A stretch of DNA of 63,475 nt from NCBI GenBank assembly GCA_050947035.1, contig JBMNVW010000005.1:1-63475 (forward strand). Direction: 5' to 3'. A program made the position numbers and the translations under genes. Positions 41,634 to 56,650 of this stretch are shown here, piece after piece; position 1 is the stretch's first letter; every line of letters starts with the position of its first letter. The notes beneath the pieces were generated by a model, which was given only the letters and a program-made list of their open reading frames with translations, did no database searches and was not told the origin of the DNA. This DNA comes from Patescibacteria group bacterium (GTDB taxonomy: Bacteria > Patescibacteriota > Microgenomatia > 0-14-0-10-38-17).

Positions 41634-41645
41634 AAAGAAGAAACT

Positions 41646-41735: not shown

Positions 41736-42428
41736 TTATTCTAAAACAAACATCCCCGGCAGAGTTCTAACCAAAAACTCTTCTCCTTTTTTTACTACCT
41801 CAATAACAAACTCTGTTTCATTAATAAACTGACCACCAACATGGCTGCTATTAACATAAACCTGGCCGTCTTCTTCCAAATAATTAACCCGAAATAAAAA
41901 AACATCTTCTCCGGAGACCGGTTCCTTAACACTTAAAATTCTTATCTTTGTCTTAGCCCCCTCCTGGGAACAAATTTCTTCTAAAATAGCAACCCGATCG
42001 TTTAGTCCGGAAGTTATCCCAAAAACGCTTTCCAACAAATCCTCGTTAACATATTGCCAATCAACCAATTTTACCGCCTCCTCATAGTCCTGAGAATCAA
42101 GATGGAAATAAAAATCGCCCAGGGCCTTGGCCGCCCTTTGGGTATCAGCACTCATATTTTTTGTTTCCAAAATTTTAGTTTCCGGTTCAGACTCTTCTTC
42201 AACCTCAACTTTTGAAGAAGAATTGCCTTTGGCAACTTCAGTAGTTGGAGCAGGGGAGAGGGTTATTTCTTCCAAAAAAGTTTCCTTAACGGAACCTTTG
42301 GCTTGCTTTTTGCCAAGAAGAAAATAAGTGCCAAAACCAGAAAAAATAGCACTAATAACAATCACCAAAATAGCCAAAAAAATAATTTCGCCCTTTTCTT
42401 TAAACATTAGGATAATTCTTGACCACAT
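41736..42428 (-). CDS. Hypothetical membrane-anchored protein
   Basis: 230 aa with one N-terminal TM helix. Overlaps the upstream gene by 22 nt. Confidence 0.5.
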   Translation of the reverse strand: MWSRIILMFKEKGEIIFLAILVIVISAIFSGFGTYFLLGKKQAKGSVKETFLEEITLSPAPTTEVAKGNSSSKVEVEEESEPETKILETKNMSADTQRAAKALGDFYFHLDSQDYEEAVKLVDWQYVNEDLLESVFGITSGLNDRVAILEEICSQEGAKTKIRILSVKEPVSGEDVFLFRVNYLEEDGQVYVNSSHVGGQFINETEFVIEVVKKGEEFLVRTLPGMFVLE

Positions 42429-43537
42429 TTAGAACAAAACTTGCTCTCGGGGTTATTTTTAGTCCCGCAAGCAGAGCAATAAACCGCTTCTTCTTTGGTT
42501 TTTGGTTCTTCTTTTAGCGGCTCCTTCTTCCCATCATCTGGTTGTTTCTCTTTATCCTTTCTAGTTAGCAAAAATATGGTTACCCCAATAATCACCAAAA
42601 CAGTAATCAAAATTAAAACCACTAAACCCCCAATCTTGCCCAAAAAGGGTTTGACCGGCAAAAACCCCTCATCATTATCATCAGTGTTGGCCGTTGCTGT
42701 CTTGCCCTCATCGGGTAGATCACTGCTAAGGCTTAACTGATATTGGCTAGCCCCAGATTGATCGGCGTTATAATCGCCAACCGCCACCGCAACATAAAAG
42801 GGGCCGTTTTTTTCCGCCTTAATCGAGGTTTCTGCCGCCACACCCGAGCCCTGAGGGTTATCACTGGCTACCTCGTCCCCATTATCATCATAAATTACCA
42901 AATCTAAATATAAGCCTCGAGGCGGCGTGGCTTTAACAGTTAAATTTTGCCCTCGACTAAGATTAACTTGATAAAAATCTTCCCCGTCTTGGGCATCATA
43001 ATTAAAGTCAAGAAAGCCAGTATGTTGGCCTAATTCAACCGGCAAAGCACTATTAAGCGTATTACCGGCATCAGTTTGGCTTTTGGCATCAAAGCGGTCA
43101 ACCACCTCAATACTGACTAAATCAAGGGTGGCCTTATTAATCGCCTGATTCTTAATTTGTAAATAATATTTTTGCTCTTCCTGGGAACCGTTAGGCCAAT
43201 AAAAAGAAAGATCATCATTAGGACCCAAATACTCTTTATAGGTTAGAACCTGATAATCTTGATCGTAAAAATATATGCCAAGATTGGTTTCACCGCTAAA
43301 TAAAACTTTAGCCCTAATTTCCTGGCCGGGTAAAACTTCTTCATCAATAAGATAAAAAACACTCTCTCCATCAGGCAGGGAATAATTACCATATTCGCCA
43401 AGAGAGAGGGGAGTGGCGGCTACTATGGCTTCACCACCAGCAGGAAGAGTGTTTTGGGCAAAAGATTGGCAGGGAAAAACGGAAAATAGCAAGCTAAATA
43501 GGAAAAAAAAGCAAAACAAGCGCCCTTTCTTTATCAT
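42407..43537 (-). CDS. Secreted protein with PPC-like beta-sandwich repeats, a TM helix and a cytoplasmic zinc ribbon
   Basis: Signal peptide, two pre-peptidase-C-terminal-like modules (..DGESVFYLIDEEVLPGQEI.., ..GEDFYQVNLSRGQNLTV..LDLVIYDDNG), a TM segment, a Lys/Glu tail and YCSACGTKNNPESKFCSKCG. Confidence 0.55.
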   Translation of the reverse strand: MIKKGRLFCFFFLFSLLFSVFPCQSFAQNTLPAGGEAIVAATPLSLGEYGNYSLPDGESVFYLIDEEVLPGQEIRAKVLFSGETNLGIYFYDQDYQVLTYKEYLGPNDDLSFYWPNGSQEEQKYYLQIKNQAINKATLDLVSIEVVDRFDAKSQTDAGNTLNSALPVELGQHTGFLDFNYDAQDGEDFYQVNLSRGQNLTVKATPPRGLYLDLVIYDDNGDEVASDNPQGSGVAAETSIKAEKNGPFYVAVAVGDYNADQSGASQYQLSLSSDLPDEGKTATANTDDNDEGFLPVKPFLGKIGGLVVLILITVLVIIGVTIFLLTRKDKEKQPDDGKKEPLKEEPKTKEEAVYCSACGTKNNPESKFCSKCGQELS

Positions 43538-43702
43538 GTTAATTCCAACTTAGACCATTAATTCTCTTCTGTCAAGAACCAACCTTGGCCTATATCTAAA
43601 TATCTAAAATAGCCTGGTAAAAATTTTTATTCGAGGCGCGGAGAAAAATTAACTAGCCAACTCCTCGCTTCAGTATGAAAATCCTCTCCTTTTGGCATAT
43701 CA

Positions 43703-43718
43703 ATAGATCCTGGATCTA
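43703..43718. repeat. Palindrome ATAGATCC-T-GGATCTA (copy of the 20561 core)
   Basis: 16 of 16 nt are identical to 20562-20577. Confidence 0.5.
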
Positions 43719-43770
43719 CCAAGTAATTAAAGCTAGTTTTCCTATAGTTTTGAATCTTTAAAAGGACCTT

Positions 43771-43967
43771 GTCAACCTTGGCTGTCTTAACTTTGGCCTG
43801 GGACAATATTTAGTTATCGAGGATAATAATTTAAAATTTTACGATTTAGATTATTAGTTCAAAAAAGAGAGGATTTCTCGCTTAAATACTTTACCGTATT
43901 TAAATAGTTGGGCATAAATTATTTTTACAAAATTTTTCACAATTTTAAAAAGGAGAGTCCTTAAAAA
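43771..43967 (+). repeat. Module copy A: last ~90 nt of a metallophosphoesterase gene plus ~110 nt of downstream sequence
   Basis: Aligns with 54544-54740. The gene fragment still reads in frame as VNLGCLNFGLGQYLVIEDNNLKFYDLDY*. The block TTAAATACTTTACCGTATTTAAATAGTTGGGCATAAATTA is identical in all three copies. Confidence 0.85.
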
Positions 43968-44153
43968 TATGGGCTAGTGGAAGATAAACGCTATTGTCTT
44001 GGCCCACAAAGACGAGATAAACACGTCACCCTTTTTAGGCTTTGGTAATGTATCCGACGTTTTTATTAAACTTATAATTTTATAATGACTTTGTTCCCCC
44101 CAAGAAAATTCAAGACACCCCTAATTTGCTAAAATAAACCCAATAACCAAACC

Positions 44154-44957
44154 ATGAGGCCAAAAAGAAAAAGTAAATTTTCTCTCTTTTGCTGGAATAT
44201 TGGCAACCCTTCAGAGGAAAGGGCCAAAAGACAGGCGATCTGGCTTGATAAACGCCCAGAGCATGTCTTCGTCTTAACGGAAACAAAAAATAGTAGTGGT
44301 TGTTTATTCATCGAAAAATACTTCCAAGAAAGAAATTATGATGTTTTCTTTCCTAAACCCAAAAACAATGAATATGGCACTATGATCATCAGCAAATATT
44401 CATTAAAAACCAGTAATTTCTCAAATAAAATTACTTATCTTCGCTCTCGGATAGCCTCTGTTAAACTAGAGCTCTCAACAGGATTACTAGAAATAATTGG
44501 GGTTTACGTTCCTTCTCGTAATTCAGAACCCAAAAAAGTGATTAAGAAAAAACGTTTTTTAGAAAACCTTATTGGGACTCTTAAAAAAAAGCCCACTTCT
44601 TCAAAAACCATCTTTTGCGGAGATTTAAATATTCTAGAACCCAATCATATTCCCCGCTACTCCTTTTTTCAAAAATGGGAATACGGCTTTTACCAAAATT
44701 TAACAGACAATAAACTCACAGACGCTTTTCGCCATCTAAGCCCCAGGGCTAAAGAGTATAGCTGGATTGGCCGCACCGGAGATGGGTATCGCTATGATCA
44801 CTGTTTTGCCTCAAAAGATCTCTTATCCTCATTGCACGAAAGTTACTACCTTTCCCAACCAAGGAAAATGAAATTAAGCGACCATTCCGCTTTAGTTACG
44901 ACATTTAATCTTAAACCCCTTAACCTAAAACCAAAAACAAACCCAATGCTATTCTAA
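44154..44957 (+). CDS. Endonuclease/exonuclease/phosphatase (EEP) family protein, exonuclease-III-like
   Basis: 267 aa with FCWNIG, VFVLTETK, GDLNI and LSDHSAL motifs. Confidence 0.8.
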   Translation: MRPKRKSKFSLFCWNIGNPSEERAKRQAIWLDKRPEHVFVLTETKNSSGCLFIEKYFQERNYDVFFPKPKNNEYGTMIISKYSLKTSNFSNKITYLRSRIASVKLELSTGLLEIIGVYVPSRNSEPKKVIKKKRFLENLIGTLKKKPTSSKTIFCGDLNILEPNHIPRYSFFQKWEYGFYQNLTDNKLTDAFRHLSPRAKEYSWIGRTGDGYRYDHCFASKDLLSSLHESYYLSQPRKMKLSDHSALVTTFNLKPLNLKPKTNPMLF

Positions 44958-44986
44958 ATCAACCCCAACCCGCATAGCGCTGCCCC

Positions 44987-45006
44987 TAAATACTGTAGTG
45001 TATTTA
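44987..45006. repeat. Fourth TAAATAC-N6-GTATTTA palindrome
   Basis: TAAATAC-TGTAGT-GTATTTA, 30 nt after the EEP stop. It has the same arms as the palindrome inside module copies A, B and C. Confidence 0.6.
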
Positions 45007-45287
45007 AATCATTGAAGTTCAAACTATTTTCCTTAGGTTCCCAAGAAACAAACATAATTCTATCCCAGGCGAAAATAAAAACAAAAAATGGATTAAGAGA
45101 AGAAAACTCTTAATGCTGGCGGTCAGCCCTTGAGGTGGTCTTTACAGTTGATCAGAGAATCCTTGAAAAAAATCCTTTGAAAATAACCCTTGAAAATGCC
45201 TCTCAGGTGGAAAAAAACCAAGAAGAAAAAAGTTTTCTTCATTAATTAGGATTATGGCGGATCTGTTGGATAAGGAGATTTACTTTC

Positions 45288-46072
45288 CTATCTACTATTG
45301 TCAAATCTTCCCTTCTCGACTACATGAGTAGGGCCATCTACATAAACCTTAGCAGCAATTTGCTCCAATTTACTTACACTCCAAGAGACTATCGGTAGAG
45401 ATTTTCCTCCGGTAGCCTCTAATATATAAACCCCTTGTTCATTGCGAGAAAGAGAAAATCAAAGTCGTTCATATTGACAACCACCATAGGTATAGGGAAA
45501 ACCATCCCCCTCCTTATAATCCCAAACCAAAGCGGTGTAGCACTTAATCATTTCCATACTATCTTCTCCTCTAGCAGATATATCTCGAAAACATTGCTGT
45601 AAAAAATCTAGTTTTTCTTGTTCTTGACGGCTACGGGAATATTTATCTTGTGGATTTACCGGCCTAGACATAAGCTCGAGATCAAGACCAGAAAAAGCGT
45701 AGACCTCTCCCGTTAGTGATGACCACGACCCAACTTGAACCTCTGAAATCACACCTAGCTTCGCTGGAGTAGGATCAATTCGCTTCTCCCGTTTTTTACG
45801 ACCAAAAAGGGTGGTAACAGTACTGCGTTCAGGAGTGCAATAATAAAGATCCATATCCTCTCTTAAATCCTCTAGAACACCAATTGCGCCAGATTCACTC
45901 AATTTTTGAACAAAAGGTAAGGCATAATTTCGAGCAATTTCTTCATGCCTTATATATACCGCATATATACCGCGTCTATACTTTCGGTTAATTTTCTCTC
46001 TTGTTCTATCTCCCAATTAAGAGCCTCTTGTTTTGCCCGCCTTCGTCTTTCAATCTCCTTTTTAATTCCCAT
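45288..46072 (-). pseudogene. Disrupted hypothetical gene: 11-bp tandem duplication (frameshift) plus in-frame TGA
   Basis: ATG at 46072 opens MGIKKEIERRRRAKQEALNWEIEQERKLTESIDAVY.., and ATATATACCGC is duplicated in tandem at 45952-45973. Removing one unit fuses this frame to track ORF 45459..46016. After the TGA at 45459-45461, 56 more codons stay open (FSLSRNEQGVYILEATGGKS ..) up to the TAG at 45288. Confidence 0.55.
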
Positions 46073-46261
46073 TTGAGCCTATAATATCACCTTCGCACTC
46101 TTGACGCAAGGCCCAATATAAACCCAGCTATCCAGCTATAGTAAGCCCTTTTCCTTTAAAAAATCAAAAGAGGGAATTGTTCTTAATAAATTTTATAAAA
46201 ATCCTCGAGACAAAAAGACAATCCCATCTCTCAAATGAGAACAGTCAAATTATTATGCCAT

Positions 46262-46306
46262 AAAAAAACCTCGCCCAGGCCAGCTAAATAGCTAGCCTGG
46301 ACGAGG
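46262..46306 (-). terminator. Rho-independent terminator after the S66 peptidase gene
   Basis: On the minus strand, CCTCGTCCAGGCTAGCT-ATT-TAGCTGGCCTGGGCGAGG is followed by TTTTTTT. Confidence 0.8.
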
Positions 46307-46409
46307 TGATGATATTTATATTTTACTGCATTAACACCGGTGTCGATAAAAAAACACAATCTTGATTATCATGAAGAACTAATAAAATTAAAAAAATTAT
46401 TAAAAAACT

Positions 46410-47396
46410 TTAGTGCTTAATTATTTTTATCTGACAGTTTTTCCCGCTGACAATCCTCGCCGTTCCACCAAGGGGTAAGGTAACCTTCGGCGTTGTGTGC
46501 CCAAAATCAACATTAGCAATAACTGGAATATTACCAATTACCCCCTTATTTCTCTTGATTATTTTTTCTAACAATTTTACACTGATATCACTCCTTATTT
46601 GGAATCTACCAAAAACCATCCCCACACAGCTTGCAAAGCCCTTATTTAAACACAAAGAAATTATATTTCTATTTAAATGATCTATTTCATACTCGTCATC
46701 GTCTTCAATAAATAAAACATATTTTTCTTCTCCTACCGGCCAGTATTCTGTCCCCCGAAGAAGCTGTAAGGTTGAGATATTACCACCTATTATTACCCCC
46801 TCAGCTTCTCCTTCTTGAATTGACAAGTATCCTTTATTTTTAAAAAAATGCCTGTCATTCTGGTTTTTCCCCCATTTTTCATCGCTCCATAAGCTAGATT
46901 CTCGCAAATCATAATTATTTTCCTGAAAGAGACATTTCTTAAAATATTCCATAGTATAACTAAAACCTCTTAACTCGCCAAAATCAAAGTAATGGGGACC
47001 ATAATATGTAACCAAGCCACTCTTAGTATAAATACCACTTAAAAGTGCGGTTATATCTGAATATCCACAAATAATTTTGGGATTACTTTTAATAACTTCA
47101 TAATCTAAATAGGGAAGTATCTCGATAGAGTTATAACCCCCGATAGCTGTAATAATCGCCTTAACGTTTTTGTCTCTGAAGGCTTCATGTAAATCTTTAA
47201 CTCTTTTTTCAATCGAAGACGAAGATAAATAGTCTATAGCCATCACGTTAGAAGCAAAAGTGAGCCTTAGACCTAATTCTTCAAATCTTCTATTGGCAAC
47301 CGCTTTTAATTCTTCAGTAAGCCAAGGCAAGGCCAAGCTTCTGGCTGGTGCGATAACTCTAACTTCATCGCCAAACTTAAGTTTAGGGGGGATCAT
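46410..47396 (-). CDS. S66 serine peptidase (LD-carboxypeptidase / MccF-like), copy 1
   Basis: 328 aa with VRVIAPA, the nucleophile context CGYSDITAL, the acidic FIEDDDE and His in DFGHTTP. Confidence 0.85.
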   Translation of the reverse strand: MIPPKLKFGDEVRVIAPARSLALPWLTEELKAVANRRFEELGLRLTFASNVMAIDYLSSSSIEKRVKDLHEAFRDKNVKAIITAIGGYNSIEILPYLDYEVIKSNPKIICGYSDITALLSGIYTKSGLVTYYGPHYFDFGELRGFSYTMEYFKKCLFQENNYDLRESSLWSDEKWGKNQNDRHFFKNKGYLSIQEGEAEGVIIGGNISTLQLLRGTEYWPVGEEKYVLFIEDDDEYEIDHLNRNIISLCLNKGFASCVGMVFGRFQIRSDISVKLLEKIIKRNKGVIGNIPVIANVDFGHTTPKVTLPLGGTARIVSGKNCQIKIIKH

Positions 47397-47435
47397 GTTT
47401 TCTCGTTATTTACTGCTTGATATAAATATACTTCA

Positions 47436-47903
47436 TTATACCTCGATGTTTTCTAGGCCCAAATATTCCATGCAAAATAAAAGCTCCTCTGCAGAATCGA
47501 TTTTATGAAAACCATTAAAAATAACCTCAAAACCGCTTTTCTCATCCCGAAAGGTTTTTCTTAAGCCATACCTAGAGCGCAAAGAGTTATCCAGAGATAA
47601 AAAATACCCCCAGGAAGAGCCCACATCATTAATCAATCTACGGATTGTGTTCCCCTTCACATGGCTAACAATAAGAACATAATAATCTTCTCCAAAATTG
47701 CTTTCTAAATAAGCCTTTAAAAACACCCCTAAAACTTCTTTCGAAAAATCCTTGCGGTATATAGCCTTAACAACTTGAGAAAAATTAGTTTTCTTATATT
47801 TCCCTAAAATTGAATATCCCCTTCTGCTTATATCCAAACAAATATTGTCTATCTCGCTCGCACATTCTGGTTTGACTATTAACAAAGAAAGATCTCTCTT
47901 CAT
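47436..47903 (-). CDS. Nucleoside-diphosphate-kinase-fold protein (divergent)
   Basis: LLIVKPE start as in NDK (IKPD), NTIRRL, and NGFHKIDSAEE aligning with N.VHGSDS.E (catalytic His retained). ATGA overlap with the upstream gene. Confidence 0.55.
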   Translation of the reverse strand: MKRDLSLLIVKPECASEIDNICLDISRRGYSILGKYKKTNFSQVVKAIYRKDFSKEVLGVFLKAYLESNFGEDYYVLIVSHVKGNTIRRLINDVGSSWGYFLSLDNSLRSRYGLRKTFRDEKSGFEVIFNGFHKIDSAEELLFCMEYLGLENIEV

Positions 47904-48622
47904 TGTATAATCTTTTCTGGCATAACTTCTTTTATAGAGTTCTTTTCCAAAAGCGTCATCATTAACCTATCGAAACTAATAAATACTCCTAAGCAAGGGG
48001 GAAGCCCTCTTTTAAACTCCTCTAAAAACCCAATATCCAGTCGGGCGTCAGGACGTTCTCTTTTTACCACCTCAAATTGTGATAACAACCTAGAAAGTAC
48101 CTGCTGGTAATCTTCCCCCTTCGCGCTGTGCGTCGAAAATGGCACTATATTTGCTGTCCCCGAATAGGGTGACATTATCCTACTATCTACCTCTGTTAGC
48201 CCATATTGCAGAAGGCTACTTCTGATTATTTCTTTTGCCCTTGCTCTACTTACTAACAATTCTTTAAGACTAAGATCTTCTCCTTCGTAACTCTCTGGCC
48301 TAGAAAACAAATGAAATCCTTCTACAAACAAACTCGTTTGACCACTGTTTGTAGCCCCAAGGTTTCCTACACACCGCACAAAGTCACCAGTTTTAATATC
48401 GAAAGGAGAGTTGTTATCCAAATTTTCAAAGACAATCTGTGTTTGAGTTAAGCCATTATAAACGTCACAAAACATTGTTCACTTATGTTTCCTTACCGCA
48501 ATTACTCTTCCTTCCACCTCTGAGCGGCCAACACCCTCTCCAACCCCTTGATCTTCTGAGCCACCTTGATACACTTCCCTCATTATATGAAGGATTTTAC
48601 CACCAGATCCAACTTTTTGCAT
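47900..48622 (-). pseudogene. LysRS-derived (class IIb aaRS) mini-protein lacking the catalytic core, interrupted by an in-frame TGA
   Basis: The OB fold is split by the TGA at 48479-48481 (..EVEGRVIAVRKHK*TMFCDVYNGLTQTQIVF..). The motif-1 region is LLQYGLTEVDSRIM, and VPFSTHS aligns with RPFITHH. It then jumps to motif 3 (GLPPCLGVFISFDRLMMTLL..SIKEV). About 230 aa of a normal catalytic domain are absent. Confidence 0.6.
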
Positions 48623-48664
48623 ATCTACTAAATGGTTATCAAAATAAACAATAAATATTTTTCA

Positions 48665-48975
48665 CGAAAAATATAACCAGAAAATTGAGACCAAGGCCAA
48701 AAAATATTTAAGAAGAAACCAAATCTTGGTTTGCGGCCATACTCACCTGGCCCAAAAAGACCCCAAGAAAGGTTTTATCAACCTTGGCTGTCTTAATTTT
48801 GGCCTAGGGCAATATTTAGTTGTCGAGGATAATAATTTAAAATTTTACGATTCGGATTATTAGTTTAGAAAAAAAGAGGGGATGCTTATTTAAATACTTT
48901 ACCGTATTTAAATAGTTGGGCATAAATTACTTTCACAAAATTTTTCACAATTTCAAAAAGGAGAATCCTTAAAAA
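48665..48975 (+). repeat. Module copy B: last ~190 nt of a metallophosphoesterase gene plus downstream sequence
   Basis: Aligns with 54428-54740. The fragment reads ..CGHTHLAQKDPKKGFINLGCLNFGLGQYLVVEDNNLKFYDSDY*. Most differences from copy C are synonymous or conservative. Confidence 0.85.
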
Positions 48976-49135
48976 TAAATACCTTATCTTTTACAACACT
49001 AAAAGAGTCCATCAAAGTCTAGACTATGAGACACCGATGGACTATATCATCAAAAAGGGAGGAATGTCGAATATGTATCGAGCCCGTACATAAGCTTTAA
49101 TTTATGACATATTTGTGATAGAATGTGTTTCACAT

Positions 49136-49387
49136 ATGGTAAATCCGGAAATTAAAATTAACCAAACACCTAATCACATAGATATTGTTATTAGGCAAGA
49201 AAGTTCTAGTAAAGCCGCTGTCGTTCATATTCCTTTTGGTGGAAAATCAGCCGAGACAAGTAGGATAGATCACTGGGCAAGCCCCGATGAACTATTTATG
49301 CGGCGAGAGTCCGCCATTGATATTAAAGCACCTATCGAAGAACGACCAAGAGATCATTGGGCCGGACCGGATGAATTGATGAGATAA
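49136..49387 (+). CDS. Small hypothetical protein with a duplicated C-terminal DHWA.PDEL motif
   Basis: 83 aa from the ATG at 49136 (the track starts at the GTG at 49115). Contains RIDHWASPDELFMRR and RDHWAGPDELMR-stop. No obvious SD. Confidence 0.4.
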   Translation: MVNPEIKINQTPNHIDIVIRQESSSKAAVVHIPFGGKSAETSRIDHWASPDELFMRRESAIDIKAPIEERPRDHWAGPDELMR

Positions 49388-49538
49388 TAGAATAATATAG
49401 TGAGATTTTAACTACTTTGCTCCGATTAGGCGCTGAGTAATTTGAGCCATTATGCCCCTAAGCCTAATCTCTTTTTGGTAAAATCAAAGGCTTAAATAAA
49501 GGAAAAAGTAATGCAAAATATGCAAAAAGGTATTTTGT

Positions 49539-50537
49539 ATGATTGATAAAATTTACCCCCCAAAATTATCGAAAGGCGATAAAATTGGTGTAATTGCTAC
49601 TTCAACACCAATCACGACTTTAAAGGAAGGACAAATTAAACAAGGCTATCACTATCTTGAAAGCAAAGGATTTACTGTTATTGAGCATCCTCAGTGTCGT
49701 AAAAAGAAAGATTATACAGCAGGAACAGTTAAAGAACGTGTTCGGGCTATTCACCAATTTGTTAAAGATAAAGAAATAAAATGCATTATGGCTTTTTGGG
49801 GTGGCTTAAACACAAATCAGATATTGGATTATTTGGATTATGATTTGATAAAAGCCAACCCGAAAATTTTTATTGGATATTCTGATACTTGCGCTTTGCT
49901 TCAGGCTCTTACTACAAAAACTGGTTTGGTTACCTATATGGGACCGGCAGTCATTACTTTTGCTAAACCAGACCCCTTCAATTATTCTTGGGAATATTTT
50001 AGCAAAATGTGTATCAAAGACTCAAAAGAAGTTGCAATCAAGGATTCTAAGGTTTTTGCCGACGATCTGTATTTTCTAAGAAAAGACAACGACCACCGGA
50101 TTATTCAAAAAAACCCGGGAATAAAAATATTTCGGGAAGGAAAAGCGCAGGGTTCAATAGTGGCATGTAATCTCTCTACTCTTTTAGCCCTTTGGGGGAC
50201 GGAGTATTTTCCTTTTCTAAAAGAAAAAATTCTTTTCATAGAAGAAGCGGAAGATTTAGATTACCGCTGGATACACCGTTTTATGACCCAATTAAAACAA
50301 ATAGGAGCTTTTAAATTAATAAAAGGTTTGGTTATCGGAAAATTTATGACTGCTTCAAATATTAGCGAAAGTCAACTTTTAGAAATTCTAAATGAAGTAA
50401 TTGGTAAAATCGAAATACCGGTAATCTATGATGCGAATTTTGGCCATACTGACCCCATCTTCACCGTTCCTAACGGTGGAAAATGTAAAATAAATACATT
50501 TTTCAATAAGATTTCATTTATCCAAGACAGAATTTGA
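49539..50537 (+). CDS. S66 serine peptidase (LD-carboxypeptidase / MccF-like), copy 2
   Basis: 332 aa with IGVIATS, IGYSDTCAL, FIEEAED and NFGHTDP. Overlaps the next gene. Confidence 0.85.
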   Translation: MIDKIYPPKLSKGDKIGVIATSTPITTLKEGQIKQGYHYLESKGFTVIEHPQCRKKKDYTAGTVKERVRAIHQFVKDKEIKCIMAFWGGLNTNQILDYLDYDLIKANPKIFIGYSDTCALLQALTTKTGLVTYMGPAVITFAKPDPFNYSWEYFSKMCIKDSKEVAIKDSKVFADDLYFLRKDNDHRIIQKNPGIKIFREGKAQGSIVACNLSTLLALWGTEYFPFLKEKILFIEEAEDLDYRWIHRFMTQLKQIGAFKLIKGLVIGKFMTASNISESQLLEILNEVIGKIEIPVIYDANFGHTDPIFTVPNGGKCKINTFFNKISFIQDRI

Positions 50538-50539
50538 AT

Positions 50540-51778
50540 ATGAGAATATCAAAGGAATCGGAAAAACATTATAATCTGTCCCATTCAGAAGAGATATTGG
50601 GGATAAGAAAAAAACTTGAGGAGACCTTTTTATCATTTTATAAAAAACATGGTTATAGTTGGGTTTCTCCCATTCCGCTTATTCCAGGGGAAATTGATCC
50701 ATCTGTAACGTTTACTGGGGCAACGGTGAATGGTTGGAAGCGATACTTAACAGGAGAAAATAAATTACCAAATAGGGGAATATATACAGCCCAACCATGT
50801 TTAAGAACCCAAAATGCGACTTCAATTTACGATTTTGAAACCACTCCTAAGTTTGGAAGTTATTTCTCAATGGCGGGGGTACTATCACCAGCCGGAAGAT
50901 TACCTGATATTTATCACGAAGCGCTTTCCCTTTTAACTGAAGAACTTGGAGTTGCCAAAAAAGATATTGTGGTTCATATTGCCTCTGACCATGAGGAAAT
51001 TAGCACTTGCGCGAGAGAGGGACCGTACGAGATAAAAATAGAGACCGATCAGATTGGTTATTATAAATGGAATTATGGAATAGAGGGGGTTTTAGGCGAA
51101 GGGTTAACAATAGCCTTATTAAACAAAAGGAGCCAAGAATTTGAAGAAATAGGGAATATTGTGTTAATTAAAAATAGTGGAAAAGCGATAGCAACTGAAT
51201 GGGGATTTGGACTGGAAACAACTACATCTAGACTTTTATCTTTACCACACCCTGTTTTTGCCTCTCCTGTAATTCGATTTATTGAAAAAGATGTTCTTTC
51301 AACTCCTTTGGGCGTTCGTTTGGGAGATTCTCTTGTTGCAATTTCTGCCCTTTTGGCCAATGGAACCGATCTTAATTCCTCAAATCAGAAAGTGGCGAGA
51401 GTTTTGGAAAAATATAAAAGAGGTATTGCCTACCTTGCTGCACTAGAAGAAATACCAGGAACTACGGTAGTAGAAATAATAACCAAGATTGTCAGCTCCC
51501 TCTCCCCCGAAGTTAGGGTATCGCCAGAAACAATAGAACAACTAGTTGGGTATTTTTCAAATGCCGGAAAGAGACAAAATGATTTCCTTAATTCTGTAAG
51601 GGGAATCCTCACTAACCCTGTCTATAGAACTAACCCGGAGCGTGCGGCAAAAAGTCTTCAAAGAACAGCTAAAAATTATGGATTTCATAATTTGAAAGTT
51701 ATTCGGGGTATAATTAGCTTCAACGCCAGGTTATTTACAAAAGAAGATCTTAATTTTTTAAAATGCCTACAAAACTAA
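50540..51778 (+). CDS. Stand-alone paralogue of the alanyl-tRNA synthetase catalytic domain
   Basis: Aligns by eye with the AlaRS N-terminus: IRKKLEETFLSFYKKHGY.. (IRQAFLDFF..KGH), DPSVTFTGA (DPTLLFTNAG), AQPCLRT (SQRCVRA), YFSMAGVLS (FFEMLGNFS), EIGNIVLI (EIWNIVFM), EWGFGLET (DTGMGLER). At 412 aa it has no editing or C-Ala domains. Confidence 0.65.
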   Translation: MRISKESEKHYNLSHSEEILGIRKKLEETFLSFYKKHGYSWVSPIPLIPGEIDPSVTFTGATVNGWKRYLTGENKLPNRGIYTAQPCLRTQNATSIYDFETTPKFGSYFSMAGVLSPAGRLPDIYHEALSLLTEELGVAKKDIVVHIASDHEEISTCAREGPYEIKIETDQIGYYKWNYGIEGVLGEGLTIALLNKRSQEFEEIGNIVLIKNSGKAIATEWGFGLETTTSRLLSLPHPVFASPVIRFIEKDVLSTPLGVRLGDSLVAISALLANGTDLNSSNQKVARVLEKYKRGIAYLAALEEIPGTTVVEIITKIVSSLSPEVRVSPETIEQLVGYFSNAGKRQNDFLNSVRGILTNPVYRTNPERAAKSLQRTAKNYGFHNLKVIRGIISFNARLFTKEDLNFLKCLQN

Positions 51779-52581
51779 CTCCCAAATTCATATACTCCCT
51801 TCCCTACACCGAGTTTGTGGGATTAGTTAACCAATGGAATGTTCCACCCGGGGCTTTTTCTACAGTTAATAAATGGGCTAAATTTGGTAATGTTAATCAG
51901 GATTCAAATGTTTTAGAATTGGGGTGTTCGACTGGATTTTCTTTAAGAGAGTTAACAGCTTTAACTTCTTGTAGGGGTTTAGGAATAGACATTTCTGAAG
52001 CTTCTGTGAAGACAGCCACGCTCAATAAAAATCTTTGTACTCCTGGAGCCAGAATAAAATATAAAAAGATAGACGCTTATAAGTTTCAACCAACAGAAAA
52101 ATTTTCGCATGTCGTTTTTGGAGCAGCTTTAAGATTTTTTCCGAATCCACCCAAGATACTAAAGTTAGCTACTGGCTGGTTGACAGATCCTGGGTATATA
52201 CTTTCATGCGAATTTTACACTATTCAACCAATCCCCAAAAATTTAGTAGAAAAAGCAAAAAAAATTTTTGACATAGAAATTACTCAAGTTGGCTACAAAG
52301 AAGTGATGAAAATCTACCATGATCTGGAATTAATATATGAGGAAAGAAATTCTATTTTTGAGGAGACGGCGGAAGAACTTAGCTTTTATTGTCAATCAAC
52401 TATTTCTAGAGCTTGTAAGCTTCTGAATATTACAGATAAAAAAATATATGATGCCATGTATAAGAGACTCTATGAAATAAAAAATATGTCCAACAGGCTT
52501 CGACCCTATCAAAACTATAATGTTTTAGTCCATCGATTTAGAAAAAAATTCTACCAAAAACGTTTTGTGGAGTTATTCTAA
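51763..52581 (+). CDS. Class I SAM-dependent methyltransferase
   Basis: Motif I VLELGCSTGFSL, a post-I acidic residue (GLGIDIS) and an FGAAL motif IV region. 16-nt overlap with the AlaRS-like gene. Confidence 0.7.
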   Translation: MPTKLTPKFIYSLPYTEFVGLVNQWNVPPGAFSTVNKWAKFGNVNQDSNVLELGCSTGFSLRELTALTSCRGLGIDISEASVKTATLNKNLCTPGARIKYKKIDAYKFQPTEKFSHVVFGAALRFFPNPPKILKLATGWLTDPGYILSCEFYTIQPIPKNLVEKAKKIFDIEITQVGYKEVMKIYHDLELIYEERNSIFEETAEELSFYCQSTISRACKLLNITDKKIYDAMYKRLYEIKNMSNRLRPYQNYNVLVHRFRKKFYQKRFVELF

Positions 52582-52591
52582 AAAAATAAAA

Positions 52592-53119
52592 ATGATATTA
52601 ACTGGCGAAGAAATAAAAAAACAGGTAAAACTTGGGAATATTCATATTAAACCTTTTTGCGAAGAATTAATAAATCCAAATAGTTACAATTACAGAATAG
52701 CTCCTGAATTATTAGAAATTGAGGAGGAAATAATTGATTCAAAAAATCCATACAAGACGAAAACGGTTTGGATGGACCAACAAAGCGGATTTATGCTCAA
52801 ACCTCACCGGCTATACCTGGCAAAGACCTATGAGGAAATTGGCAGTAGAGAATTTGTCACCATTTTAATAGGACGTTCGTCTGTGGGTAGACTAGGATTG
52901 TTTCTCCAAATTACCGCAGATTTGGGTCACGTAGGATGTCAACATTGTTGGACTTTGGAGCTAAAAGTGGTTCAGCCTCTTATTATTTATCCATTTATGA
53001 AAATTGGACAAGTCGGTTTCTGGATAAATTACGGTTCTAAAAATAAAAAATATTCTGGGGAGTACGGAAAATATTCAATTCCCTATCCAAGCAAACTCTA
53101 TAAGGAGCTTAATAAATGA
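52592..53119 (+). CDS. dcd: dCTP deaminase-fold protein (dUTPase superfamily), catalytic Glu present
   Basis: MILTGEEIKK.., NPNSYNYRI, and GRSSVGRLGLFLQITADLG..CWTLELKV, which aligns with GRSSLARLGL..IVLEF of Dcd. ATG at 52592 preferred. Confidence 0.75.
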   Translation: MILTGEEIKKQVKLGNIHIKPFCEELINPNSYNYRIAPELLEIEEEIIDSKNPYKTKTVWMDQQSGFMLKPHRLYLAKTYEEIGSREFVTILIGRSSVGRLGLFLQITADLGHVGCQHCWTLELKVVQPLIIYPFMKIGQVGFWINYGSKNKKYSGEYGKYSIPYPSKLYKELNK

Positions 53120-53631
53120 TACTCACGGGAAAAAAAATTAAGGAGGAAGTAAAAAAGGGTAAGATAGTTATCGACCCCTTTGATGAGAGTAAAATCAACC
53201 CAAACTCTTACGACTTCAGGTTGTTTAATAAGATAAAAATCTATAAAGAGCGAATATTGGATGTCAAAAAAGTGAATGAAGCTGAGGAGGTGGAAATACC
53301 CCCTTCGGGATTTGTATTAAAGCAAGACGTTTTATACCTCAGCTGTACGGTGGAAATTATGGGCAGTAATTTTTATGTGCCAATCATTCGAGGAAGATCT
53401 TCAACGGCAAGGCTTGGGATATTTATCCATATAACTGCCGACCTAATTGATATTGGCTCAATAAACAGGTGGACATTAATGATGCACGCTGTTCAACCAG
53501 TTAAAATTTATCCCTATATGCTAATAGGGCAGGTAACGTTTTGGGTTCCTAAAGGAAAAATAACTTTATATAAGGGTAAATACCAAGGAAGTAAAAAACC
53601 AATGTCATCATTAGCTTATAAGGATTTTTAA
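53116..53631 (+). CDS. dCTP deaminase-fold paralogue with the catalytic Glu replaced (TLMM)
   Basis: MILTGKKIKE.., NPNSYDFRL and GRSSTARLGIFIHITADLIDIGS..RWTLMMHA. ATGA overlap with the preceding paralogue. Confidence 0.7.
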   Translation: MILTGKKIKEEVKKGKIVIDPFDESKINPNSYDFRLFNKIKIYKERILDVKKVNEAEEVEIPPSGFVLKQDVLYLSCTVEIMGSNFYVPIIRGRSSTARLGIFIHITADLIDIGSINRWTLMMHAVQPVKIYPYMLIGQVTFWVPKGKITLYKGKYQGSKKPMSSLAYKDF

Positions 53632-53777
53632 AGAAGTTAAGTTTTTAGTCAATTAGGATTAATTAAATTTGGGGGTCTCTTTAATTACTATAATCAGCAG
53701 CATAGTAATCCAAACATTAGCCATATTCTATCTAACAACCAATAACATCTGCAACTCTCAAGGGGTTAAATTGCTAG

Positions 53778-53820
53778 GTCAAACCCCCACGAGGTCTTTG
53801 ACCCTTTAATCTTTTTCTTA
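53778..53820 (+). terminator. Candidate terminator of the 49.1-53.6 kb operon
   Basis: GGTCAAA-13 nt-TTTGACC followed by the T-rich CTTTAATCTTTTTCTT. Confidence 0.4.
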
Positions 53821-53985
53821 GCCAATTATTTAATCCCCATTCGATAACTCTTAGTTTTTCTTGAGACCGATTTCACTAAAATCCGTCCCTATGCTAGTAT
53901 GTAAAATACTGTTTTCTAAAAACCATTTAGGGCGAGCCCTTATAGGGGGGGCATTAAAATAAACCAAAGACTAAAAAGACTCACT

Positions 53986-54630
53986 ATGAAAACCCTAATT
54001 TTTTCCGATACTCATTTAACCAATAAGCCCGACCCCAAACGAATGGCTTTTTTGAAAAAGATTATCAACGAGGCTGACCGGGTAATTATCAACGGCGATT
54101 TTTGGGATGGAGTGTTTATTAGTTTTGATCAGTTTTTATCTTCCCCTTGGCAAGAATTATTTCCTTTATTAAAAAAGAAAAATACCATTTATGTTTATGG
54201 CAACCACGATAAAAAAGAGCGTTGCGACGAAAGAGTAAGCCTGTTTTCCAACCACCAGGCCGAAAGCTATTCTTTATCTCTAGGAAACAAAACCTTGCTA
54301 ATTACTCACGGCCACAACTTAAATTTATCCTTTACCAAAACAGTCAAAATCTTAAAAATCTGCCGGCCACTATTCCGCCTTGATCATTTTTTGGCCAATA
54401 TTTTGGGCCGAAAATATCTTTATTGGTCAAGAAAAAAATATAATCAGGAAGTTGAAAAAGAAGCCAAAAAACTTTCCCAAAGAAACCAAATTTTGGTTTG
54501 CGGCCATACTCACCTGGCCCAAAAAGACCCCAAGAAGGGTTTTATCAACCTTGGTTGTCTTAATTTCGGCTTAGGGCAATATTTGATTGTTGAAGATAAT
54601 AGCCTAAAATTTTATGATTTAGACTATTAG
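53986..54630 (+). CDS. Calcineurin-like metallophosphoesterase (LpxH/YfcE-like)
   Basis: IFSDTHL, NGDFWD, YGNHD, ITHGH and CGHTH motifs. This is the only full-length copy of the gene whose 3' end is repeated at 43.8 and 48.7 kb. Confidence 0.8.
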   Translation: MKTLIFSDTHLTNKPDPKRMAFLKKIINEADRVIINGDFWDGVFISFDQFLSSPWQELFPLLKKKNTIYVYGNHDKKERCDERVSLFSNHQAESYSLSLGNKTLLITHGHNLNLSFTKTVKILKICRPLFRLDHFLANILGRKYLYWSRKKYNQEVEKEAKKLSQRNQILVCGHTHLAQKDPKKGFINLGCLNFGLGQYLIVEDNSLKFYDLDY

Positions 54631-54740
54631 TTTAGAAAAAAAGAGGATTTCTCGCTTAAATACTTTACCGTATTTAAATAGTTGGGCATAAATTATTTTC
54701 ACAAAATTTTTCACAGCCTCAAAGGGGGAATCTTTAAAAA
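54428..54740 (+). repeat. Module copy C (reference copy: 3' part of the intact metallophosphoesterase gene plus ~110 nt downstream)
   Basis: Homology to copies A and B ends at the same point in all three, just after TTAAAAA (43967, 48975, 54740). Confidence 0.85.
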
Positions 54741-54856
54741 CACTTCAATTTTTCACTTCATTCCTCAAGCCCTAAAACCTAGCTACCTAACCATCTAGCG
54801 AAAGGCTTTTTGTTCCGTTACAATAAAACTAATCCTAAAATTTGAGTTCCTGCCTG

Positions 54857-55537
54857 ATGAGTAAAAATTATTCTCTCCAAAGCCTGCCACCGGAAGAACG
54901 GCCCCGGGAAAGACTAAAACAATTAGGGGCAGAAAATCTTTCCCTTCAAGAACTCCTGGCCTTGGTTATCGGCCGCGGCACTAAAAACAAAAATGTTTTA
55001 CAATTAGCCCAAGAATTGCTTTCTTTCTTTGGTAATTTACAAAATCTTCGCCAAGCCTCGCTGGAAGAACTAAAACAAATTAGGGGCATCGGCCCGGCCA
55101 CGGCTTGTAAAATAAAAGCGGCCCTGGAAATAGGGAAGAGGAGTAGCAAAAACTTTCAGCAATACCAGCAAAAAATTGCCAAACCGGTTGATGTTTTCAA
55201 ACTCTTAAAACCCCAAATCGGCGATAAGAAAAAAGAACATTTCGTTTTGCTTTCTCTAGATACTAAAAACAATATTATCAACCTGGATACAATTTCTATC
55301 GGCTCCTTAAATATTAGCCTGGCCCACCCCAGGGAAATTTTCCAAACCGCCATCAAAAACTCCGCCGCCACCATTATTCTAGCCCATAATCACCCTTCCG
55401 GCGATCCCACCCCCAGCGACAACGACCTCAAAATTACCAAACGGCTATCAGAAATCAGTAAATTGGTAGGAATTAGGTTAATCGACCATATCATTATCGG
55501 TCAAAGTGGGTACTACAGTTTTAGCAACCAAGACTAA
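54857..55537 (+). CDS. radC: RadC-like JAB-domain protein
   Basis: PPEERPRERL, an HhH region (LRQASLEELKQIRGIGPATA) and the JAMM motif HNHPSGDPTPSDND. ATG at 54857 preferred. Confidence 0.9.
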   Translation: MSKNYSLQSLPPEERPRERLKQLGAENLSLQELLALVIGRGTKNKNVLQLAQELLSFFGNLQNLRQASLEELKQIRGIGPATACKIKAALEIGKRSSKNFQQYQQKIAKPVDVFKLLKPQIGDKKKEHFVLLSLDTKNNIINLDTISIGSLNISLAHPREIFQTAIKNSAATIILAHNHPSGDPTPSDNDLKITKRLSEISKLVGIRLIDHIIIGQSGYYSFSNQD

Positions 55538-55585
55538 AAGGCCAAAAATCGGCCGGAAAGCAATATCAATGATAAAATAAGAGCA

Positions 55586-56515
55586 ATGCTGTTCAAAAAG
55601 GGGAGTAACGATAATCTAACTCCGGTTAAAAGGAAGAATATAAAGCTGGAAAAATCCCTCCAAAGCTTAACAGAAAAAAATTTGGAGGCGATTTTTGGTT
55701 TAGAATTTATTTCCACCGAGTTTCAAGTTGACAATCTTCGAATCGACACCCTCGCCTTTGATAACGAAACTCAGTCTTTTGTCATTATCGAATACAAAAG
55801 AAACCGAAGTTTTAGCGTTGTCGATCAAGGTTTTGCTTACCTTTCCCAAATGTTAAATAAAAAAGCCGAATTTATTTTAGAATATAACGAAAAAAGGGAA
55901 CAGAACCTCAAAAGAAACGATATCGATTGGTCGCAATCGCGCATAATTTTTATCGCCGGCTCCTTTACAACCCACCAGCAAAAAGCCATTAACTTTCAAG
56001 ATTTACCGATTGAGTTATGGGAAGTAGAAGAATATAAAAATAGCCTGATTAAATATGAACAATTAAAAACTCCCGGCGCCACCGCTTCAATCAAGGACCT
56101 TGGCACAAGTCAAACTATCTCAAGGATTAGTCAAGAAGTAAAGAAATACACTATAGAGGACCATTTTCACGAAGGATGGGATAATTCAAGAGAGTTGTTT
56201 GAGGAAATTAGAGAAAGGATATTAAGTCTCGACGATCAAATCGAGGAAAACCCCGTTAAGCATTATATTGGTTATAAAATCGCTGGTAGTGTTTTAACCG
56301 CAATAAGAATACAAAAATCTAAACTGATAGTTGACCTAAATAGAGTTCAGCCTAAAGATCTGGAAGATCCGGAAAAGGAAGTTTATTACCAAAAAAACAG
56401 TATGAAATATTACAATAAGCATATGAGTCAATTCAATATTAAGAAATCCGAAGACATCGATTACGCCATATTTCTAATCAAACAACTGCACAAAAAATTC
56501 GCGGATGAGTTTTAA
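55586..56515 (+). CDS. PD-(D/E)XK (NucS/DUF91-like) nuclease-domain protein with a DUF5655-like C-terminus
   Basis: LRIDTLAFDNETQSFVIIEYKRNRSFSVVDQGFAYL matches the D..ExK core of NucS-type nucleases. The C-terminal half is of a type I recall as common next to R-M loci. Confidence 0.55.
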   Translation: MLFKKGSNDNLTPVKRKNIKLEKSLQSLTEKNLEAIFGLEFISTEFQVDNLRIDTLAFDNETQSFVIIEYKRNRSFSVVDQGFAYLSQMLNKKAEFILEYNEKREQNLKRNDIDWSQSRIIFIAGSFTTHQQKAINFQDLPIELWEVEEYKNSLIKYEQLKTPGATASIKDLGTSQTISRISQEVKKYTIEDHFHEGWDNSRELFEEIRERILSLDDQIEENPVKHYIGYKIAGSVLTAIRIQKSKLIVDLNRVQPKDLEDPEKEVYYQKNSMKYYNKHMSQFNIKKSEDIDYAIFLIKQLHKKFADEF

Positions 56516-56518
56516 ATC

Positions 56519-56650
56519 ATGAACGGAAAAAAACACAATGAAATTGTAAGTTTTATTTGGAGCATTGCTGATGATGTTCTTCGAGATGTTTTTAATAGGG
56601 GAAAATATAGAGACGTAATCTTGCCTTTATTGCTTAACCATAAGGGTTAA
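56519..56650 (+). pseudogene. hsdM: Remnant of a type I R-M methyltransferase (HsdM N-terminus, 43 codons)
   Basis: MNGKKHNEIVSFIWSIADDVLRDVFNRGKYRDVILPLLL matches the conserved HsdM N-terminal helix region (..W..AD.LR......Y..VILPL..). It then stops. No remaining hsdM, hsdS or hsdR follows. Confidence 0.55.

Follow-up and report, generated by a model that had tools for sequence, protein, structure and literature searches.

Three direct repeats of the 3' end of a metallophosphoesterase (MPE) gene, each followed by a two-hairpin element of ∼105 nt (the module), subdivide an array of accessory genes in a Patescibacteria group bacterium (GCA_050947035.1, contig JBMNVW010000005.1, positions 1-63,475; assigned by GTDB to Bacteria; Patescibacteriota; Microgenomatia; 0-14-0-10-38-17). 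The window referred to throughout is this whole 63,475-nt stretch. The locus holds up as a cargo-accumulating hotspot, a hypervariable accessory-gene array in a Roizmanbacteria-like lineage of the candidate phyla radiation (CPR); homologues of the MPE gene occur in Roizmanbacteria-like CPR. We consider it probable (roughly 65%) that general, Campbell-type homologous recombination on the repeated units, and not a site-specific process, drives the gain, loss, and swapping of the cassettes.

The copies were defined by a repeat search of the window and by MAFFT alignment. They delimit cassette 1 (between copies A and B) and cassette 2 (between copies B and C) as follows.

43769-43969 (+): copy A, a direct repeat, with weaker gene similarity back to ∼43756
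43769-43857 (+): MPE fragment A, the last 29 codons plus stop, in frame, with weaker similarity from ∼43756
43858-43969 (+): module A; hairpin 1 core 43882-43903, TTTTCAC-type repeats 43922-43928 and 43934-43940, hairpin 2 inner stem 43950-43962
43970-48649: cargo of cassette 1, absent from L013/L031 (two assemblies of one lineage)
48667-48977 (+): copy B, a direct repeat, with gene similarity back to ∼48650
48650-48863 (+): MPE fragment B, 63 in-frame codons plus stop, similarity beginning at ∼48650-48667
48864-48977 (+): module B; hairpin 1 core 48890-48911, hairpin 2 inner stem 48958-48970; identical to the single copy of L013/L031
48978-53985 (+): cargo of cassette 2, 98.2% identical in L013/L031
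53986-54630 (+): intact MPE gene of the YfcE/Metallophos_2 type (Pfam), its 3' end belonging to copy C
54631-54743 (+): module C; hairpin 1 core 54656-54677, TTTTCAC repeats 54696-54702 and 54708-54714, hairpin 2 inner stem 54723-54735
3' end of 53986-54630 plus 54631-54743 (+): copy C, a direct repeat

All three copies represent one unit, an MPE gene plus its module, which is intact in C and decayed in A and B. The repeats are 200-310 bp long and 81-92% identical, with start-to-start spacings of 5006-5008 and 5766-5767 nt. Over the last 87 coding nucleotides, identity amounts to 92% between A and B, 84% between B and C, and 80.5% between A and C, and from the palindrome of hairpin 1 to the right end A and B are 95.5% identical. 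Similarity among the copies ends at a common point, after CCTTAAAAATA in A and B and after CTTTAAAAACA in C. This point is the foot of hairpin 2, and the right boundary is shared because it is the end of the conserved element, whereas, on the mechanism favored below, the left boundaries differ because they are deletion end points of once-complete genes. A 40-nt block (TTAAATACTTTACCGTATTTAAATAGTTGGGCATAAATTA) is identical at 43882-43921, 48890-48929, and 54656-54695. The palindrome TTAAATAC-N6-GTATTTAA occurs four times in the window (0.16 expected), the fourth occurrence being a decayed module 3' of an EEP (endonuclease/exonuclease/phosphatase) gene, and the 36-nt block after the palindrome occurs three times (0 expected).

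Differences from copy C fall on the third codon position in 11 of 17 cases for fragment A (p = 0.008) and in 16 of 30 for fragment B (p = 0.019), which is consistent with copies that diverged within working genes. A preliminary description of this stretch, made from the letters alone, had reported the three copies, their common right-hand boundary, and in-frame fragments with mostly mild differences, and had proposed their divergence as parts of functional genes; repeat search, alignment, and an independent assembly bear out the observations, and the third-position bias fits the proposal. It had also treated the module as the MPE gene's own downstream sequence, which is contradicted by the occurrence of the module family beside many different genes in several CPR lineages.

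Three explanations of the differences among the copies were dropped. The 97% identity of B to C at 48713-48775 was at first ascribed to gene conversion; orthologues are 89-95% identical there, because the region covers the GHTH catalytic motif, and the claim was withdrawn. A diversity-generating retroelement does not fit, since the differences, read by eye from the aligned copies, are transitions for the most part, affect all four bases without adenine bias, and favor third codon positions; no reverse transcriptase domain was found in the Pfam-scanned open reading frames (ORFs) of the window. Likewise, a reading as pilS-like silent cassettes was rejected because the aligned copies show no protein diversification.

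The order of the array is confirmed by NPIE01004804.1, an independent assembly (GCA_015657915.1) that is collinear with window 37425-55539 in the order A-cassette 1-B-cassette 2-C at 98.5-98.8% identity; the repeats are therefore not an assembly artifact. Window positions 43896-48755 and 54670-59147 are also covered by Logan contigs at 100% identity. Several contigs end at window-equivalent 48755, as expected because the repeat breaks short-read assembly. The suspicion of an artifact, raised in the preliminary description, is contradicted by both lines of evidence.

The cassette 1 polymorphism is seen in L013/L031, in which window 48775-55539 (98.2% identity) is joined straight to 41771-43969 (91.9%), without the 5,008-bp cassette 1 and with a single repeat copy. 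This copy is A-type at 8 of 8 discriminating sites at 43759-43771, where it also carries the deletion junction of A, and B-type at all 23 discriminating columns at 43791-43957 and beyond. There is one switch point, within the 19-nt interval 43772-43790, and it lies inside the gene fragment, 92-110 nt 5' of the palindrome. Window copies A (resident on the left, other on the right) and B (other on the left, resident on the right) are thus the reciprocal products of one crossover. The crossover fits equally the Campbell-type integration of a circle carrying one unit and cassette 1 or the reverse deletion. Because identity steps from 92% to 98% at the repeat, the unit also served as an end point for exchange between lineages.

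Exchange among the copies is further visible in the sister strains. Copy B of NPIE01004804.1 differs from window copy B at eight sites, all of which match copy C, in a background that is otherwise 99% identical. Module C of the window is A/B-type, whereas NPIE01004804.1 and L013 share a version that differs at 8 of 45 nt and lacks the 40 nt between two ATTTTTCAC repeats; L031 and L034 gave only a shortened model match for module C, consistent with the same deleted version. Since copy C of the sister strains differs, the identity of the 40-nt block in the window reflects gene conversion (concerted evolution). The palindrome-containing block is identical in the three window copies, as first described, but it is not invariant.

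Other relatives carry other cargo between anchors of the same kind. In L022, the block of S66 peptidase, 155-aa, and LysRS-like genes plus fragment B is 99.7% identical to the window, and to the left of this block lie an APH gene, an ABC-transporter operon, and another MPE tail without a module. The more distant relative L029 (Ga0268279_1000046) shares the left-flank Zn-ribbon gene (72% nucleotide identity) and, on the right, radC and restriction-modification (R-M) genes. Between these flanks its array contains radC1, a 311-aa gene, a NUDIX gene, a reversed MPE gene, a 412-aa gene, a second NUDIX gene, and EEP and GNAT genes, with five to seven same-strand modules. Conserved flanks with different cargo are found in the window, L013/L031, L022, and L029, and they are accompanied by breakpoints inside homology, reciprocal products, and conversion tracts.

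These comparisons, which the preliminary description had recommended, yielded the single-copy allele without cassette 1 and bear out its proposal of an integration hotspot with differing cargo: cassette 1 is present or absent, cargo differs in L022, and L029 has another array. The same relatives contradict a scenario in which relatives share the three copies with identical cargo. Of the two modes of insertion it had offered, the homology-driven one is supported by the crossover inside the gene fragment and by the conversion tracts, whereas no evidence of a site-specific event was found at the palindrome or the right boundary.

The module itself belongs to a family found across several CPR lineages. 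Its relatives were gathered with a degenerate pattern and then with a profile hidden Markov model and a covariance model applied to the relatives' loci. The degenerate pattern returned 2 genome and 12 metagenome loci, among which L011, L015, and L019 look like chance matches; the module is found in L007, a Shapirobacteria metagenome-assembled genome (MAG), in L008, a MAG labelled Saccharibacteria, and in about nine metagenome contigs. A wide search for the 40-nt block had been suggested earlier; a 33-nt pattern derived from it (27 specified bases) had 0 matches in species-representative genomes. Two different patterns found no module in the IMG/VR viral contigs, where there was no sign of a phage att site.

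In the consensus, an 11-6-11 palindrome (hairpin 1, with invariant AAATAC/GTATTT) is followed by a conserved linker of ∼37 nt (TTTTCAC-AAAA-TTTTTCAC, with direct repeats at 12-nt spacing) and by hairpin 2 (GCYTC-GGA-AAGGA-GAA-TCCTT-G-GAGRC), which comprises two short stems with a bulge and a loop of 3 nt. In the 16 modules compared, the inner AAATAC/GTATTT of hairpin 1 is invariant, the outer positions covary (at one pair UA in six and GC in five), and the center is variable. Both hairpins covary, with 10 of 21 pairs changing on both sides and 0 of 500 shuffles reaching the observed score, and 82% of the cells pair in the module alignment compared with 27-48% in slid controls. Judged by G-U versus A-C counts, 82% of cells pair on the plus strand and 87% on the minus strand, with no clear preference. 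Two variant modules of L029 (1955-2078 and 11601-11739), which adjoin both radC copies upstream, keep the linker and hairpin 2 and have hairpin 1 replaced by a GC-richer palindrome (CTATGCAAGGCC.GGCCTTGCATAG).

Most modules lie 8-40 nt 3' of the stop codon of a co-oriented gene (MPE, EEP, 86-aa, or 94-aa gene), and fewer lie between divergent genes. Within each array examined (window, L029/L030, L008, L004, and L020) all modules are on one strand, and in the window they are confined to 43.8-54.8 kb of 63 kb. A sigma-70-like block (ACCTGGCCATC-TAGACA-17 nt-TAnAAT) usually stands 3' of the module, serving the next gene (radC, mod). The EEP-plus-module unit has different neighbors in the window, L008, and L029; EEP homologues in more distant CPR sit in a housekeeping context without modules. 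A recurrent 412-aa gene beside modules proved to be a coincidence of length among three unrelated protein families. Some modules end on the right in two to three tandem copies of the 3' half of hairpin 2 (CTTGGAGAC or CCTTGGAGGC), as at L012 ∼680-720 and L029 11718-11775; slippage or repeated joining at this end may have produced them. Our best guess is that the module is a cis-acting structured element that marks unit boundaries and whose conservation makes it a reusable homology anchor.

In the mechanism we favor, the repeated units would be portable anchors on which general (RecA-type) homologous recombination acts; relatives encode RecA. A circle or fragment carrying a unit and its cargo would pair with a resident unit, and a single Campbell-type crossover would add the cargo together with one extra unit copy. 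The reverse crossover between two direct copies would delete a cassette, and non-reciprocal conversion would keep parts of the copies identical. The resident target would have been a 5'-deleted remnant (a NUDIX-5' piece plus the last 90 nt of the MPE gene), with the intact MPE gene arriving with cassette 2: if a cassette 2 circle bearing a complete MPE unit recombined within the tail or the module, the truncated copy would stay on the left and the intact gene would come to lie beside radC. The existence of a circular intermediate, whether each event was a gain or a loss, and the order of acquisition are inferences.

This mechanism would explain why the intact gene comes last, because the resident target was truncated and the intact MPE gene travelled with cassette 2. 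The rightmost position of the intact gene, which the preliminary description had considered unusual, is as observed there, and it ceases to be unusual if the target was already a truncated remnant. On this account no integrase would be needed near the locus, because homologous recombination on repeated units would suffice. In agreement with the earlier account, no integrase or recombinase domain was found in Pfam scans of the ORFs at 38.9-63.5 kb and a few others, the remaining translations of the window being read by eye.

Several observations weigh against this account. Only one polymorphic event has been mapped, and the crossover at 43772-43790 could in principle be a fixed site-specific one. 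The left flank of L013 is 92% identical to the window, and hence L013 is not its direct ancestor or descendant. No circular junction was seen among the sequences compared, and no pre-insertion state for cassette 2 was found there. Plain homologous recombination does not require arrays with all modules on the same strand, which hints at a dedicated process, as do the ORF-plus-module units (EEP, 86-aa, 94-aa, and MPE), the half-modules, and the tandem CTTGGAGAC ends.

It is possible, although on the unlikely side, that the module acts chiefly on expression, as a structured RNA or as a regulatory region bound by protein, and that the MPE copies are by-products of duplication and decay. The covarying hairpins and the conserved single-stranded linker with its direct repeats would be expected of such an element, and a Shine-Dalgarno-like AAAGGAG is sequestered in hairpin 2. 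The placement of most modules, 3' of one co-oriented gene and followed by a sigma-70-like block for the next, points the same way, as does an OmpR-type two-component system 6 kb upstream of the locus. The latter was recognized by eye; its homologues in L003 carry HisKA/HATPase_c and Response_reg/Trans_reg_C domains. However, Rfam 15 gives no meaningful match at E-values up to 10 for module C or the L010 modules, with tRNAs alone reaching the gathering score. Pairing shows no clear strand, and some modules lie between divergent genes. The module is not an intrinsic terminator, since its hairpins are AT-rich and lack a T-tract, whereas a textbook terminator is present at 46268-46307, so that the organism uses ordinary terminators. 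A sigma-70 promoter inside the module was likewise rejected, since it contains no conserved -35/-10 hexamers and the promoters lie downstream of it. A role in expression leaves the clustering of modules in one variable locus unexplained, and it is compatible with homologous recombination on the units.

A rather doubtful alternative is that the module is a dedicated site-specific recombination site, with a dif-like hairpin 1 or a miniature attC-like hairpin 2, served by an unlinked recombinase, be it a host Xer-type or an unknown enzyme, and that the MPE tails hitch-hike; the arrays would in that case be integron-like or pdif/IMEX-like. A dif or pdif site measures 28 bp: a variable 6-bp center separates two 11-bp arms, whose inner parts form a conserved palindrome (PMC6449649). 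Hairpin 1 has this layout in 16 modules, with 11-bp arms, invariant inner and covarying outer positions, and a variable 6-nt center, and hairpin 2 has the two short stems, bulge, and 3-nt loop described above. Every module lies on the same strand as its array neighbors, ORF-plus-module units recur beside different neighbors in different genomes, half-modules occur, and the right-end core is found in tandem. Moreover, the distant CPR relative L039 encodes a Phage_integrase-family recombinase with a SAM-like N-terminal domain, a pair typical of Xer. The mapped crossover nevertheless argues against such a site: neither it nor a cargo boundary falls at the center of the palindrome, and the homology between copies runs through both sides of the palindrome. 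The swap of hairpin 1 for an unrelated palindrome in the L029 variants favors structure over a specific protein site, and spacers vary among the modules of one genome. The right end (CTTGGAG/CTTAAAA) is unlike the attC R' core GTTRRRY, and the module does not fold as a single long hairpin. Neither the 63-kb window (partly by eye) nor the 20-kb L029 locus (by precomputed Pfam assignments) yielded a recombinase.

Over the 63 kb analyzed, no replication-related switch in GC skew is apparent at the locus. The cumulative minimum near 49 kb vanishes when gene orientation is factored out, leaving a replication component of about -0.09 to the left and -0.10 to the right, computed over 63 kb only. A replication origin with DnaA boxes was rejected on similar grounds: TTTTTCACA fits TTWTNCACA, but the window shows no DnaA-like protein, and gene orientation accounts for the skew minimum.

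The array features keep a dedicated recombination role alive, at long odds. In its broadest form, which we regard as improbable, the module would be the recombination site of an undescribed cassette system of the Microgenomates-type CPR, integron- or pdif-like, with same-strand arrays of ORF-plus-module units exchanged between lineages, a new kind of site, and a recombinase encoded elsewhere (a host Xer-like or the always adjacent RadC-type protein). If such a system exists, the homologous events seen here would be a background on top of it.

An old in situ tandem duplication of the MPE region, decayed and fixed, or an assembly chimera, either without a hotspot, is very improbable: in its favor, the copies are 8-20% diverged and two are truncated pseudogene pieces, but the cargo is unrelated apart from the 37%-identical S66 paralogues, close relatives vary in the number and content of their cassettes, exchange is ongoing as shown by the conversion tracts, and the order of NPIE01004804.1 and the 100%-identical contigs over junction-adjacent segments oppose a chimera.

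The cargo of the two cassettes comprises the following features, beginning with cassette 1.

44154-44957 (+): EEP/ExoIII-like gene (Pfam), cassette 1
44979-45031: decayed module following the EEP gene, cassette 1
45459-46016 (-): truncated ORF, cassette 1
46268-46307 (-): intrinsic terminator after the S66 gene, an 18-bp GC-rich stem then T7, cassette 1
46410-47396 (-): MccF-clade S66 peptidase (Pfam, NCBIfam), cassette 1
47436-47903 (-): 155-aa gene without a family match, cassette 1
47900-48475 (-): LysRS-like gene, an internally deleted remnant, cassette 1
49115-49387 (+): small ORF, cassette 2
49539-50537 (+): MccF-clade S66 peptidase, cassette 2
50534-51778 (+): AlaRS-catalytic-domain-like gene, cassette 2
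51763-52581 (+): S-adenosylmethionine (SAM) methyltransferase, cassette 2
52565-53119 and 53116-53631 (+): two dCTP-deaminase-like (DCD) genes, cassette 2

Pfam supports the earlier calls of EEP, S66, LysRS-like, AlaRS-like, MPE, radC, and R-M genes and also bears out the methyltransferase and the two DCD genes, but the 155-aa gene, previously called "NDK-like", has no match in Pfam, NCBIfam, or PADLOC. The truncated ORF at 45459-46016 has a full 257-aa form in NPIE01004804.1 that is without a Pfam or PDB match, and PADLOC returned just a weak methyltransferase match. The S66 copies of cassettes 1 and 2 are 37% identical, and the cargo is otherwise unrelated. In structure matches, the S66 proteins reach E-values of 1e-52 to 1e-62 with MccF and MccF-like proteins, compared with ∼1e-13 to 1e-24 for murein (muramoyl)tetrapeptide carboxypeptidases.

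Each S66 gene stands in an operon with a stand-alone class II aminoacyl-tRNA synthetase (aaRS)-like catalytic protein (window 46410-48475, minus strand, and 49539-53631, plus strand; L022 134-2832). One of these proteins is LysRS/EpmA-like (402 aa when intact, in L022), and the other resembles the N-terminal domain of AlaRS (414 aa). The sets of S66, aaRS-like, and nucleotide-enzyme genes look like aminoacyl-nucleotide (microcin C-type) immunity or biosynthesis modules in a CPR genome. The LysRS-like gene of the window lacks 478 nt that are present in NPIE01004804.1, with a deletion junction at ∼48109-48115. It is intact at 402 aa in L022/L024, split into 269 and 147 aa in NPIE01004804.1, 240 aa long in L025-L027, and 191 aa long in the window. 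The gene decays differently among near-identical strains, while the adjoining 155-aa gene is 100% conserved across all of them.

The flanks of the array and the single transposon of the window are as follows.

42407-43537: conserved Zn-ribbon membrane-protein gene, left flank of the array
43621-43656 (+): remnant of the last ∼12 codons of the 86-aa cassette gene (blastn to L004 138-173; in relatives the gene is followed by a module)
43686-43755: remnant of the NUDIX gene 5' end and the NUDIX-MPE intergenic region, 91-94% identical to L003 9860-9916 and 10810-10879
54771-54826 (+): promoter-like block ACCTAACCATC-TAGCGA-17 nt-TACAAT upstream of radC, from a motif search with hexamers read by eye
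54857-55537 (+): radC, right flank of the array
57256-57320: related promoter-like block upstream of the Type III mod gene
29851-30616: IS200-like element, 766 nt, with a Y1_Tnp gene (29911-30585) preceded by the hairpin CCCACCTTCAAGGTGG

The stretch left of copy A is a graveyard of unit remnants. Stretches 9860-9916 and 10810-10879 of L003 flank its MPE gene, the intergenic piece lying directly upstream of the intact MPE gene there. Because L003 keeps both pieces around an intact gene, fragment A must derive from a NUDIX-MPE pair by internal deletion. The same NUDIX-5'/MPE-tail junction is found in L013/L031 and probably also in L003, whose contig stops a little before it. The tail "...IRGxEKN*" of the 86-aa gene precedes modules in L004, L012, and L029 (1664-1924).

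On the right, blocks homologous to 54771-54826 follow modules in L004 (∼1498), L008 (1516 and 6712), L029 (∼11540 and 2120), and L020. The motif ACCTGGCCATC, followed by TAGACA-17 nt-TA(G/C)AAT, recurs 5' of radC, Type III mod, and other array genes. It has a good sigma-70-type layout, sometimes with a TG extension, and may serve the array genes as a common promoter or operator. The R-M island after radC (55586-63470) differs among near-identical strains: the window and L033 carry DUF5655, a 191-aa gene, and Type III Mod/Res, and NPIE01004804.1 and L031 carry Type I HsdM/S/R with a HEPN gene (L021 1-1788; L031 8145-16011). In L001, a 74%-identical relative with a 691-kb contig and a locus without modules, a serine recombinase (Resolvase) gene (6246-6935) is found among hypothetical genes beside recA/recX, 3 kb upstream of the MPE gene.

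The IS200-like element is the one transposase-bearing element in the window, 14 kb from the repeats and unrelated to them. It is 88% identical to L004 1574-2327, where it is sited just after a module and promoter block. The Y1 HUH transposase was rejected as the missing enzyme, since its gene lies in a self-contained element that happened to land near a module in L004. In the neighboring region (29627-29850), the last ∼21 nt of tRNA-Gln (TTCGAATCCTAGCTCCCCAAC) recur ∼108 nt downstream, at ∼29807-29827, and this repeat is probably the att-like scar that an element typically leaves at a tRNA gene when it integrates or is excised.

The genomes of CPR bacteria are tiny, and gene exchange among them is presumed although very little is known of how it proceeds; this locus offers a concrete example at the sequence level. 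Built-in repeats would let accessory operons be added, lost, or swapped between lineages 8% apart without a mobile-element enzyme, and the cargo exchanged includes MccF-type immunity genes, stand-alone aaRS-like enzymes, nucleases, and R-M systems. Because such repeats break short-read assemblies, islands of this kind are probably under-reported in MAGs. The main by-product of the analysis is the module, a newly described non-coding CPR family without an Rfam match that marks accessory-gene boundaries. If it were a true recombination site, it would represent a new cassette system; if it were an RNA or regulatory element, it would be a new conserved cis-element in a barely studied group.

Among known systems, Xer-dependent elements (Acinetobacter pdif modules and integrative mobile elements exploiting Xer (IMEX); PMC6449649) are alike in their recombinase-free cargo, in the 11-6-11 layout of hairpin 1, and in the placement of sites along an array. 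They differ in that the palindrome is unrelated in sequence to known dif, the sites are direct repeats within a 105-nt element, the mapped crossover lies elsewhere, no terminus signal is seen in the skew over 63 kb, and palindromic spacers would give no polarity. Repetitive extragenic palindromic (REP) sequences and bacterial interspersed mosaic elements (BIMEs) with their REP-associated tyrosine transposases (RAYTs) share the intergenic palindromes just 3' of stop codons and a Y1_Tnp gene in the genome; in contrast, the modules are clustered in one locus and one orientation, and the Y1 gene, in its IS200-like element with a hairpin of its own, is flanked by no REP-like copies and has no modules around it.

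Integron arrays and clusters of attC sites lacking integron-integrases (CALINs) resemble the array, with an ORF plus a structured element of ∼100 nt in one orientation, small accessory cargo (GNAT, NUDIX, nucleases), and cassettes with varied neighbors. Single-ORF units (EEP, GNAT, 94-aa, and 86-aa, each plus a module) are seen in L029/L030 and L008. These units have their own promoters, and the cassettes of the window are multi-gene, 5 kb in size, and encoded on both strands. The module lacks R''/R' cores (RYYYAAC/GTTRRRY), its right end being CTTGGAGRC or CTTAAAAAT, and it consists of two separate hairpins plus a linker. No intI was found, with no Phage_integrase domain in the Pfam-scanned or eye-read translations of the window or in the 20-kb L029 locus.

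In SCCmec/ACME (staphylococcal cassette chromosome mec/arginine catabolic mobile element) composites at rlmH (orfX) and in tRNA-gene islands, a dedicated integrase acts on near-identical core repeats of 15-60 bp, and the intact gene lies upstream. The likeness to such accretion at gene 3' ends is that direct repeats of a gene 3' end delimit successive blocks of cargo; the differences are that the window repeats span 200-310 bp at 81-92% identity, that no integrase domain was found in the scanned window, and that the intact gene comes last.

In minimal mobile elements and core defense hotspots, cargo lies between conserved flanks without a recombinase. The Neisseria "minimal mobile elements" (PMC3787668) are an example of gene content that varies at fixed chromosomal sites through homologous recombination. 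The window array is alike in having different cargo between the same conserved flanks, recombinase-free cargo, exchange via homology, and mosaic or conversion patterns. It is unlike them in that the homology is repeated inside the array, which allows the additive accretion and loss of single cassettes, whereas plain flank replacement does not. Variable loci driven by homologous recombination and tandem island accretion at gene 3' ends are the closest known kinds, and what is new here is a conserved structured element that brings the homology into the array itself.

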